From assembly GCA_030264375.1 (NCBI GenBank), contig JASCQW010000119.1, positions 47,793,418-47,857,417 on the forward strand: a stretch of DNA of 64,000 nt, in the 5' to 3' direction. Shown one piece after another: positions 7,575-23,754 of this stretch. Origin of the DNA: Carcharhinus longimanus. Taxonomy: Eukaryota. The position numbers were made by a program, and so were the translations under genes. Under the pieces are notes generated by a model. It saw only the letters and a list, made by a program, of their open reading frames with translations. It had not been told where the DNA came from and made no database searches. Positions within the stretch are counted from its first letter, which is position 1. Each line of letters begins with the position of its first letter.

Positions 7575-7860
7575 TTTATTTATTAGTGTCACAAGTAGGC
7601 TTGTATTAATATTGCAATGAAATTACTGTGAAAATGCCCTAGTCAACGCACTCCGCCTGTTCGGGTACACTGACGGAGAATTTAGCATGTCCAAGGTACC
7701 TAACCAACACGTCTTTCGGACTGTGGGAGGAAACTGGAGGAAACCCATGCAGACATAGAGAGAATATGCAGACTCTGCACGGTGGTCCAAGCCAGGAATT
7801 GAACTCTGATCCCTGGTGCTGTGAAGCAGCAGTGCTAACCACTGTGCCACCGTGCTACCG
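7575..7860 (-). mobile_element. tRNA-derived SINE (HE1/V-SINE-like shark family)
   Basis: Minus strand reads gcacggtggcacagtggttagcactgctgcttcacagcaccaggga..gagttcaattcc (Pol III A and B boxes), with a V-domain-like core. Related copies occur elsewhere in the window. Confidence 0.85.
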
Positions 7861-13744: not shown

Positions 13745-15377
13745 GTAAAAGCTGCACCTTGATTGTTTAGCAGACTCCATAACCTCATTTTAAAGTTTTG
13801 TCAATCTTTTAAACCGGGTTAATAATGCCTCATGATTCAGCCTCATGCTTGTTGCCCAAATGCAAGTTTTATTGCTCTAGACACCAGTAGTATAATAATT
13901 ACAGTTACACAATAGGTTCATACAACCTGGTTTCCCACAGACCCAAGATGATCAAACTTGGCCTTCGCAGATGTTGTTCCTCCAGCCAACCTGAGTTCTG
14001 ACCTTAAAAAGCTGTTCTCTGATGTATTATATACCCTTTCTTTGGAATGCATAACATGATAAATAGTATATTGAAGCAAGCTCCTTTTCATCCAACCTCC
14101 TAACATAAGGAGTAGACAATCTCATAGTTAAGTGGTACTGCTTGGGTGCTCCCACTGTTCTGGCCAATATCCAATACTGCAGGATGTAACCAACACGTCT
14201 GCCATATTATTCTGCCTAGTAGCCATATTCTCACACATTCAAATTCTGACAGTCACATTGAGATGTGGTTGACTACACGACTCTGGGCAAATTTTGTCAA
14301 AGGTGGAACTTTGTTTTAGCTGCTCTTCCAGAAGATCAAGTTGTTGAGTTGACACTGGTAGTATGACGTGCTGAATGCTCTACATATATGTGCTGTAAGT
14401 TTGATAAATCTTTGAAGACAAAGAAATGGCTTTTTTTCATTTTTGCCTGTTTTATCCTAATTTCCTTCCTTTTAGCAACATTGGATTAATTCAGTTTCTC
14501 AAAATCTCTGTCCAACAGAGTGGAAGAATACTCTCTGAAATAATAAGTGTTCTGCCCCTCAATTCCAAATGATAACAGTATTTTCCTTTTCAAAATGTGA
14601 ACCATATATTCCTGTCAGTTGCAGCACAGATTCATTCACTTCGTTACTTCCATGTGCATGCCAGATCGCGTTTCTTACATCTTTTGCTGTCATGTAAGCA
14701 TCTGCGATTGTATTGCTCATGTTCTTGGCCTTCAATTATGTTGTCTTTCATAGCTGTTCATGTCACAAATGTTGAACACATTTGAAATTGGCAGGAGGAA
14801 GAGGTAATGTAAGAGACCAGGAATTACCGTGCTATCTCATTTACAAGACGTGCACTCAAATTGAGATTTTGACCATGAGTGACTGAATAAATTATCTAAA
14901 TGTTTATAATTTTATAATCTCTTTATTGTTGGTAAGTATTATTGACAGCATTTGGCAAAACCTGAAGTATGTTAGTATTTTATTAGACCTGCCGAAGTAT
15001 TATCCAGACCCAAAATGTTGGCTGTATTCTTTCTCTGCAGATGCTGTCAGACCTGCTGAGATTTTCCAGCATTTTCTGTTTTTGTTTTTGTCATTTTTGC
15101 AAGCTATTTTCTGAAACAACTTTTTACAACATGGCCACTTTTAATAAGTCCAGAACTGAACTTCAGACTATAGGCAGGATTGAACTTTTACATTTTTGCT
15201 CACTGACGTTTCCAAGTGGAATGCACAGACAATTTCAGTTAAAATCTCGCTCATGTCTCTTGTCTAAATATGGGCCAGCATTCATTTCAGAGGCATTATG
15301 CAGGGATGNNNNNNNNNNNNNNNNNNNNNNNNNNNNNNNNNNNNNNNNNNNNNNNNNNNNNNNNNNNNNTTTTTTTC

Positions 15378-15435: not shown

Positions 15436-15619
15436 GTAACCCCCGCCTGCCTGCCCAAACCATTATCTAACAATAACAGATGCAAATATATGGCTTATAG
15501 TTAGGTTTTCCATAAGCGTCCATCGATAGTTTTTTTTGCCCAGCTACAACTTCTGTCTTAGATGTGAAATGTTTTGCATTTGATTTATTTAATGTCTGTG
15601 TGCCTTTAACGTTATGTAG

Positions 15620-15725
15620 GTGAATTCACACCTGAAATGCAACTTCGCCTACGTCAAGAAATGGAGAAAGAAAAGAAAGTAGAGCTGTGGAAAGAGAATT
15701 TTTTTGAAGATTATTATGGGCAGAA
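15620..15725 (+). CDS. ASXL1: ASXL1 coding exon (end of DEUBAD)
   Basis: tag|GT GAA TTC...GGG CAG AA|gtaagc; 106 nt. Encodes [34 protein letters not shown](K). Confidence 0.96.
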
Positions 15726-19054: not shown

Positions 19055-19805
19055 ACTGGGCTTGTCAAAAGAAGAATCAGAACATCAGACATCCGTACAA
19101 GTGGAAATAGAAAATGAAGCCAGTTCACCTGTATTAGCAGGGCCATCCAAACAGCAAAGTCCGGTTAAAAAGCAGGATGAAAGAGTAAGGAAATGTACTA
19201 GAAGTTCAAAGGTGGACCTCAAATGCAGAGTGAAGCGGAGTCTTATTAAAGAAACACAGATTGAACTTCCTGAACCAAGTGAAAAAACAGTTTCATGTAC
19301 AGTCTCTTCTCAAGATACGAGGAGCCAGAAACAGCAAAGTCATGAAGCCAAGGTGTTTCATGCTGTTAGCTGTGCAGATGAAGATCAGCTGAGTTTAATT
19401 AAAAATGAAGCTAGACCTGGACAGCTAGAAGAAATTCTTCCAAATAAATCTGCCTTAAACTCCAAACCTATACTGCTTGCAGAAAGACCAGTTGGTGTAC
19501 AATCTCAAGAACATATCACATCTGATGGACGTTTAGAATTGACTGATGTGCAACCTGCTGGAATTTCTAAGGATCAGATCACCTGTTTAACTCTAAGGAG
19601 CGCTGCTTTGAAAAGTGAGTTGGAGCACAATTCTGGAGAGTCCAAAGACCAAAAGAGAAAGTCCTCTGAACATAGCGCCTCCACCTCTGGCCCTGAGAAG
19701 AAGCCACGTCTTGATGATCATCAGTCCTTTCGGACCGCAATTGATAGCTTTCGGACAGAAAAAGAACATCCTACAAAAGAAGAGCCAAAGGTGCCACCTA
19801 TTAGG
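19055..19805 (+). CDS. ASXL1: ASXL1 penultimate coding exon (basic NLS-like motifs, frameshift site, start of ASXM1)
   Basis: cag|A CTG GGC TTG TCA AAA GAA GAA...CCT ATT AGG|gtatgt; 751 nt. Encodes LGLSKEES...KDQKRKS...[14 protein letters not shown]...[10 protein letters not shown], as in ASXL1. Confidence 0.95.
19725..19733 (+). other. ASXL1: Candidate +1 programmed ribosomal frameshift site UCC_UUU_CGG
   Basis: In-frame TCC TTT CGG (S-F-R) at the position of the conserved ASXL1 UCC_UUU_CGU site; the +1 frame is open downstream across the splice junction. Confidence 0.75.
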
Positions 19806-22800: not shown

Positions 22801-23754
22801 ACATGATGACTTAATTGGAGTTTCATGTTGTGCTTTGGAAATCCAAAGGATGTGATGAGATACTGTGTAAGCACACCACTCGCCTCAGCTCTTTTTTGCA
22901 GGAACCAGAATGTACTGTTGATTTATTTATTTAGAACAAGAAGCTTTCCTTTTTATTCCTGATTTTTCTATGAATGTACATTCAATTGGTAAACCATAAC
23001 AGCATGGTGCGAATAGATGAGGGAAAAGTATGGAATATTTCAGGTTTGGTGATAAAATATATTTTGTTTGCATGTTAATGACTTCCTGTTTTGAAAGTCA
23101 GACACTGATAACCTGCCTTTTCTCTTTACAGATTGAACAATGTGTTCTGTAGTCTTGGTCCTTTCTGTTTTTGTTTCAGATTTAAATGTGTAATTTTCCC
23201 TTTTGTTTCATCAGATTAGTGTTTTGAAATTAATAGCAATTGTAGAAGGATCTATGTCTCTACCAAAATGTTGCGCAGGGTATAACTAGTTGCTTTCTTT
23301 GTGTAGAACCAGTTTTGCAAAAGCATTCTAAATAAATTTGCATTATTTTGCTTCCAGATTCAACTCTCAAGAATCAAACCTCCTTGGGCTGTCAAAGGGC
23401 AGCCAACCTACCAGATATGCCCCAGGATCGTCACTACAGTTGGGACAGTCAGTCGAGAAAGGACAGGTGCCAGAACACTTGCAGATATCAAAGCCCGTGC
23501 TCAGCAAGCCAGGGCACAAAGGGAGGCTGCAGCAGCTGCAGCTGCCAATGTTACAGTGGAAGGAGGGGGAAGGGGTAGTAGTGGTAGTGGACCACGGGGC
23601 ACTGATTCCCCCGGACCAGCCGACGGAAAAACAAAAGTTGTTGAACAAACTACAGCAAAACATCAGTATAGAGCACAGCTATTCCAAACCTGCGCAACAG
23701 ATGAACCAGAAAAACCCAGCGATGGAGAGATTAGTGTTAAGCAAGGTGTTATAA
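19732..23754 (+). CDS. ASXL1: ASXL1-TF overlapping +1-frame ORF (spliced 19732-19805 + 23358-23754; 156 codons plus TAA) with EHSY HCF-1-binding motif
   Basis: No stops in the +1 frame: [25 protein letters not shown]|[25 protein letters not shown]...[43 protein letters not shown] is GAG CAC AGC TAT at 23671-23682. Confidence 0.75.
20030..20845 (+). mobile_element. Degenerate CR1 LINE pieces in the last ASXL1 intron
   Basis: aaaaggaaattgagaaagcagagaaaggacatgaaaagaatattggcaagcaaaatcaagg and aggctgaggggagatctaattgag are CR1 ORF2-like. Confidence 0.65.
21963..22699. repeat. Long inverted repeat: 149-nt arms (21963-22111 and 22551-22699), 439-nt spacer
   Basis: The arms are reverse complements with 4 mismatches by manual comparison. 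Confidence 0.93.

Follow-up and report, generated by a model that had tools for sequence, protein, structure and literature searches.

The ASXL1 gene of the shark Carcharhinus longimanus was found to carry two slip-like sites, TCC TTT CGG ACC (19725-19736) and AGC TTT CGG ACA (19746-19757), both of which lie in the ASXL1 zero frame. The original prediction, which described a tandem S-F-R-T repeat with the same UUU and CGG codons, 21 nt apart in one frame, was confirmed in the sequence. CTTTCGGAC was present at 19727 and 19748, and one further copy was located at 7713. On balance, we favour the explanation that site 1 is the ASXL1 shift site and that site 2 is an old UUU_C, which would be kept mainly by coding in two frames and would contribute a minor leak of ribosomes.

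The host gene was identified as ASXL1. The best 15 protein matches all carried this name (88-98% identity); the nearest named proteins were ASXL1 of Mustelus asterias and Scyliorhinus canicula, with 98% identity across the 65 residues scored. Residues 517-573 of human ASXL1 also matched the locus, and the match to one PDB entry reflects sequence identity alone. ASXL2 and ASXL3 were located at separate loci in the same genome. The features of the ASXL1 locus are given below, with positions counted along the window, that is, the whole 64,000-nt stretch of DNA that was analysed.

15619 to 15725 (start approximate), + strand: ASXL1 coding exon preceding the site-bearing exon, located by tblastn, with GT after 15725 and a donor in phase 2.
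19055 to 19805, + strand: penultimate ASXL1 exon, with a length of 751 nt that is not divisible by 3, placed by the acceptor context and by the 19805-to-23358 join in contigs.
19612 to 19805, + strand: open +1 (transframe, TF) frame within the penultimate exon; the last upstream stop is TGA at 19609-19611.
19714 to 19716, + strand: ATG in the +1 frame, slightly 5' of site 1 and deep inside the mRNA, which matters mainly as a reporter artefact.
19725 to 19733, + strand: site 1, UCC_UUU_CGG, zero frame, the predicted ASXL1 +1 shift site (PMC5644247), same as the PLEKHM2 site.
19746 to 19754, + strand: site 2, AGC_UUU_CGG, seven codons 3' of site 1, which also codes for TF residues A-F-G.
23358 to 23754, + strand: the 3' portion of the TF ORF, carried by the last exon in the +1 frame, with TAA 23752-23754 as its stop.
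23671 to 23682, + strand: EHSY in the TF frame, consensus of the HCF-1-binding motif as defined in PMC5644247.
23358 to 26684, + strand: last ASXL1 coding exon, zero frame, 1108 codons, with a PHD-type cysteine motif at its end.

Contig ends from three of the four runs stopped matching at 19805 and went on into the start of the last exon; the runs are presumed to be of RNA origin, and an exon-exon join is what the contigs show. A +1 slip at the UUU_C of either site leads into the same TF frame, as had been claimed, and to a common stop at TAA 23752-23754. The TF comprises 156 codons after the S-F of site 1, with EHSY at 23671. When the protein was held fixed and the codons were redrawn 20,000 times, with an open frame plus [DE]HxY being scored and with a background that included the N gap in ASXL2, the probability of an open +1 frame and motif in ASXL1 was 5e-5. 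The two junction peptides that had been listed, TAIDSFGQK being that of site 2, also were correct.

The ATG at 19714-19716 comes from Asp-Asp codons, and most relatives have Glu-Asp at this position. Independent initiation at this ATG was set aside, since it lies deep in the mRNA and there is no ATG at the same place in human. The assembly contains a run of N at about 15310-15375, in the intron preceding the 15619 exon, and another in the last exon of ASXL2 (L011), 3' of the TF.

Site 1 is an in-frame UCC_UUU_CG[U/G] motif 26 codons 5' of the last exon junction. It agrees in gene, position and UCC_UUU_CG core with the ASXL1-TF +1 frameshift predicted by Dinan, Atkins and Firth in 2017 (PMC5644247); common to both are an EH[N/S]Y near the end of the TF and an ORF within about 125-165 codons, with a TF of 156 codons here and 162 in Callorhinchus milii. 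That paper reports the site in 200 species and names C. milii, with UCC_UUU_CGG, as the sole exception. The CGG codon, which had been put forward as a non-canonical novelty, is therefore a published feature of C. milii ASXL1, and the nonamer equals the validated site of PLEKHM2, for which about 1.1-1.3% frameshift and junction peptides detected by MS are reported (PMC11451614). PLEKHM2 and ASXL1 site 1 have in common the nonamer, the lack of an essential RNA structure and the overlapping ORF that is reached; they differ in that the PLEKHM2 shift is experimentally shown, at a single site with a weak 3' stem-loop effect, whereas the ASXL1 shift is predicted. The same P-site slip of tRNA-Phe on UUU_C with a CGN codon in the A site is described for influenza A PA-X and the plant amalgaviruses (PMC3498833, PMC5052127), the latter using all four CGN codons (PMC5052127), but these sites are viral and are described as single sites.

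Site 2 has its UUU_C re-pairing core at 19749-19752 in the zero frame, and its A-site codon, CGG, belongs to the CGN class. Its E-site codon is AGC, not YCC, which places it outside the strict YCC_UUU_CG motif. At viral UUU_CGN sites the E-site codon modulates the level of slipping, and AGC is reported to be among the codons that lower it; site 2 may act like the YCC_UUU_CG motif at a lower level. The tandem arrangement had been thought undescribed, and no description of paired sites in tandem was found for ASXL genes in the literature searched, the scope of which excluded most subscription journals; Fig. 2a of PMC5644247 may show the second site of C. milii. The available text of that paper mentions neither a second UUU_CGG nor an ASXL2 UUU_C upstream of the -2 site, and the "tandem shift sites" of PMC5009743 are classical -1 sites. 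In summary, the CGG codon is ordinary and known, and site 2 is real, old and undescribed as far as was searched.

Among 3541 background codons from ASXL1, ASXL2 and ASXL3 there was no in-frame UUU_CG and, given Phe-Arg, the probabilities of UUU_CGN and UUU_CGG were 0.21 and 0.031, respectively. The two 21-nt units (19725-19766) shared 14 of 21 bases and formed the sole such block among 236 in the exon; in the last exon none of 1094 blocks matched to this degree. The site pair exceeds chance for a single-coding sequence. The stretch codes in two frames, however, and these codons are fixed by that alone. As the best match in both exons, the pair of 21-nt units is possibly an ancient 21-nt tandem duplication. 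No RNA structure was found 3' of the sites: 19715-19805 folded worse than 188 of 200 shuffles (z = +1.39), in a test confined to this segment, without pseudoknots or the spliced continuation.

S-F-R-T was present at both sites in all 17 cartilaginous-fish protein clusters, which represented 15 species and included sharks, rays and C. milii; the free variation of site 2 that would have spoken against the original prediction was not seen. The bony vertebrates had S-F-R-N at site 1 and Val replacing the second Phe in 74/74 clusters, mostly birds. The first ten residues of the published C. milii TF were identical to those of this shark, and with both the zero-frame and the TF peptide fixed, AGC TTT CGG ACA was the only possibility for site 2 in C. 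milii (deduced codons). Since the deduced codons are the same, site 2 spans the holocephalan-elasmobranch split. This split took place about 400 million years ago. In a comparison made for raised synonymous conservation from site 1 onward, no difference was listed across 19674-19805 in three close relatives, compared with 11 upstream; these relatives are too close to be informative for site 2, with a probability of 0.76 for no change in 9 nt by chance. For 19725-19805 in the most divergent run, P was about 0.09, with 2 further differences in that run that were unlisted.

Several observations bear on coding in both frames. Human ASXL1 has GUU_CAC at the place of site 2, so that UU_C and the TF Phe are kept without a Phe codon in the zero frame. 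Among the ASXL1 rows considered, coelacanth, gar, bowfin and 19 of the 20 tetrapods carry Phe at TF position 7 together with a zero-frame Val, and 20/21 teleosts carry Ser or Cys at this position; the constraint from the TF frame is thus not absolute. The block at the exon end had all eight TF residues the same in C. milii and this shark, the preceding seven matching at one (by eye), and between these two species it was as invariant as site 2 in both frames. Against an account by two-frame coding, the first U of the site 2 UUU is not set by the TF frame, and the second-site Phe was invariant in the cartilaginous-fish proteins of both ASXL1 (17/17) and ASXL2 (14/14). Because bony ASXL1 retains UU_C as GUU_C, conservation cannot tell slip function from two-frame coding. 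In one screen of 132 proteins, 62 lacked the anchor; the single hagfish model that served as cyclostome outgroup (P0208) was without the exon, and the invertebrate Asx proteins gave no alignment over the site region.

A further difference between the two groups was seen at 19686-19694 (TCT GGC CCT), where all 17 cartilaginous-fish clusters have S-G-P and all 74 bony-vertebrate clusters have S-F-P/S/T; several frog-like proteins are without this Phe. The human equivalent in the published sequence is UCC_UUU_CCC, 13 codons 5' of the shift site and within the open TF frame. Human ASXL1 may therefore have an extra UUU_C of its own, 13 codons ahead of the shift site.

The corresponding regions of the other two shark genes were located as follows, with the splice joins being inferred via GT/AG and the named proteins.

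ASXL2 sites and TF: L008:1585-1659 and L005:1495-1985 (G000:C27); nearest proteins 98%.
ASXL3 site and TF: L007:1585-1665 and L004:1501-1865 (G000:C61); nearest proteins 98%.

Shark ASXL2 reads CAG UUA UUU CGG ACC, followed seven codons on by GAC UUU CCC, and these sites have the same offset from the EKxPR anchor as the ASXL1 pair. Its +1 frame was free of stops over 50 codons 5' of the junction and 162 codons 3' of it, with G_GUC_UCU at +15 codons into the last exon and EHNY at +130; the resampling probability of an open frame plus [DE]HxY was 3.5e-4, and that of no stop arising between site 1 and the -2 site was 0.053. For ASXL2-TF a -2 shift on RG_GUC_UCU is predicted in PMC5644247, and the G_GUC_UCU, the TF frame and the EHNY are also present in the shark gene; the shark TF frame, however, is already open 39 codons before the -2 site, at a UUU_CGG homologous to ASXL1 site 1. 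Since the frame is open from this upstream UUU_CGG, +1 entry would be available without the -2 site. In human ASXL2, CCA_UUU_CAG and CCC_UUU_CUC show the same seven-codon spacing, and both lie in the open TF frame, as given in Fig. S4 of PMC5644247. Shark ASXL3 reads CAG UCC UUU CAG ACU exactly 26 codons before the junction, like ASXL1, and has an open +1 frame of 146 codons with EHNY at +101 (resampling probability 6.5e-4). This is at variance with PMC5644247, in the available text of which ASXL3 is described as having neither a conserved TF ORF nor EHxY; the ASXL3 of this shark has both. In each of the three paralogues of this shark there is a homologous candidate UUU_C entry together with an intact TF frame. 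UUU_CGG_ACC and the second UUU_C are common to ASXL1 and ASXL2, so the simplest order is that both are ancestral and that bony ASXL1 switched to CGU_AAC and lost the second Phe, an order opposite to the one that compensation in sharks would require. The site pair thus looks older than the ASXL1 and ASXL2 paralogues, the polarity of the changes being based on the paralogues.

At the protein level, F-R and F-P were present at the two ASXL2 positions in 14/14 cartilaginous-fish proteins. In all 16 named ASXL2 proteins of non-teleost bony vertebrates, one or more Phe stood directly before a residue whose codons can start with C (P, H, Q, R or L); both Phe residues were present in 11, the first only in 3 and the second only in 2 (Erpetoichthys and Anolis), the last group fitting a real use of site 2 and counting against two-frame coding. 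Each of the 27 Phe residues preceded P, H, Q, R or L, compared to a background of 42% (150/357). Among the teleosts, which are reported to have lost the ASXL2 TF ORF (PMC5644247), none of the 11 anchored proteins had the Phe pattern and 7 kept the QVS of the published -2 site, whereas Anolis, Pogona and Varanus kept the Phe pattern without QVS. The intact TF of lizards rests on one sentence in the methods of PMC5644247, and a TF peptide of Anolis ASXL2 was not present in the available part of its supplement. Clupea and Gadus (no anchor) and Stigmatopora (mis-anchored), all without Phe by eye, were dropped from these counts.

The ASXL3 proteins of sharks had [S/P]-F-[Q/R] in 7/7 cases, which fits YCC_UUU_C, and a second Phe in one of the seven (Pristiophorus); Phe at the site 1 position was absent by eye from all 5 batoid and all 24 bony proteins. 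P0117, P0128, P0143 and P0145, which are without the region, were dropped. The R-T-Q-L that underlies EHNY was present in 6/7 sharks and also in 4/5 batoids. It was rejected as an independent sign of EHxY in ASXL3 relatives, since the four batoids keep it without the Phe, and it appears to be partly a zero-frame constraint. The lack of the site 1 Phe in ray and skate ASXL3 (P0114-P0116, P0118 and P0119) predicts a loss of ASXL3-TF in batoids.

These protein patterns would also be expected if a redundant pair of slip sites was kept by selection in the ASXL family, so that one site may go but not both while the TF persists, an explanation that we regard as the main competitor of the favoured one, possible but doubtful. 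The presence of the Phe pattern in each of the 16 non-teleost bony ASXL2 proteins and in none of the anchored teleost ones argues for it, as do the residues after the 27 Phe, all of a kind whose codons can start with C, and the fact that most teleosts keep QVS while lizards without QVS keep the Phe pattern. However, the teleost contrast is one evolutionary event in a poorly alignable region, so that a Fisher P of 8e-8 overstates the case, and the ASXL2 counts are protein-level, with UUU versus UUC and the following C seen in this genome and human. With entry at site 1, the C after the second Phe would follow from TF coding by itself. The A-site codon of the second ASXL2 site is CCN, CUN or CAN, and a stimulation of slipping by these codons was not found in the available literature; moreover, the second F is absent from 74/74 bony ASXL1 and 6/7 shark ASXL3 proteins. 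Compensation, as suggested in the original prediction, would mean that the CGU of cartilaginous fishes decayed to CGG and that site 2 arose or was kept to restore the yield. A CGU to CGG change is reported to halve slipping at an influenza-type site, CGG occurs together with a second S-F-R in cartilaginous fishes and CGU with no second F in bony vertebrates, and the full UUU_CGG at site 2 was seen only in cartilaginous-fish ASXL1. This explanation needs both CGG and site 2 to be new in sharks, but UUU_CGG_ACC and a second UUU_C are shared with shark ASXL2, and CAG_ACU is found in ASXL3; the G and the Thr look ancestral and the bony CGU_AAC derived. The second Phe also occurs throughout cartilaginous-fish ASXL2 and in Pristiophorus ASXL3, and CGG alone is reported to be enough in PLEKHM2 (PMC11451614). 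The contrast is a single one and so gives no statistical support; we consider compensation very improbable.

The TF might instead be reached by alternative splicing, if the penultimate exon is skipped or an acceptor inside it is used on rare occasions, with UUU_C reflecting splicing elements or protein constraints. With a phase 2 intron ahead of it and a length of 751 nt, the penultimate exon can be skipped such that ...YYGQK runs on directly into the last-exon TF frame; judged by eye, the acceptors of ASXL2 and ASXL3 likewise look like phase 2, and skipping could account for the TF in all three last exons. Splicing plus duplication is presented as the most parsimonious explanation in a 2026 preprint (10.64898/2026.05.28.727796), which doubts ASXL-TF on the grounds that two unrelated shift mechanisms in two paralogues are unlikely, and which also reports that PeptideAtlas data support the TF frame of human ASXL1. 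In addition, splicing to a CAG directly 5' of site 1 would lead into the TF frame. Against this, skipping leaves unexplained the exact conservation of UCC_UUU_CG in the 200 species reported in PMC5644247, the identity of the motif with two experimentally shown shift sites and the conservation of the TF frame inside the skipped exon. The contigs show the normal join only, and contigs drop rare forms. The CAG is lost in lungfish ASXL1, two other ASXL1 and four batoid ASXL2 proteins, in which F-R stays, a loss that weakens the internal acceptor in particular. Overall, an origin of the TF by splicing is regarded as unlikely.

The observations cover sequence, frames, splice join, conservation and paralogue homology, from which the occurrence and frequency of slipping and the succession of changes are inferred as follows. 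In the favoured explanation, with site 1 as the shift site, tRNA-Phe on UUU in the P site would slip to pair with UUC while the A-site codon CGG is still to be decoded, in about 1% of ribosomes, a level taken by analogy from the identical, tested PLEKHM2 site. The shifted ribosomes would produce ASXL1-TF, a truncated protein that ends near the HCF-1-type motif. Site 2 would be a second UUU_C inherited from the gene ancestral to ASXL1 and ASXL2, and its codons would be held mainly by both frames, the zero frame calling for a hydrophobic residue there and the TF frame for Phe at its position 7. A smaller additional fraction of ribosomes probably enters the same TF frame at site 2, with a predicted third to half of the site 1 level; the slip is expected to be weaker because the AGC E-site codon is a weaker context. 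Site 2 would thus be an ancestral feature that was retained here and lost from the ASXL1 of bony vertebrates, rather than a remedy for CGG that arose in sharks.

A wider scheme is put forward tentatively. The ancestor of ASXL1, ASXL2 and ASXL3 could have had one +1 module, consisting of two UUU_C seven codons apart and a TF tail with the HCF-1 motif, which sharks would keep in all three genes, including an ASXL3-TF. Bony ASXL1 would have kept only the first site, as CGU, and ASXL2, including that of human, would enter the TF by a +1 slip upstream, which would replace or add to the -2 site; either site would serve, so that sites would disappear from lineages singly, and both would be lost only where the TF was lost.

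Taken alone, site 2 is a small point, since it would add a fraction of a percent of the predicted product. Myeloid cancers and developmental syndromes arise from ASXL truncations (PMC5644247), and the origin of a natural truncated form is therefore of medical interest. Two exact sites in human ASXL2 are named by this analysis, and entry there would give a predicted TF that is 39 codons longer, with different junction peptides; the exon-skipping route is a needed control for any test of slipping into the TF. An unreported ASXL3-TF frame is present in this shark, against its published absence from ASXL3. Finally, the homologous UUU_C ahead of an open TF in three shark paralogues removes the objection that two mechanisms would be required, and hints that all three ASXL genes may once have shared one slip mechanism.
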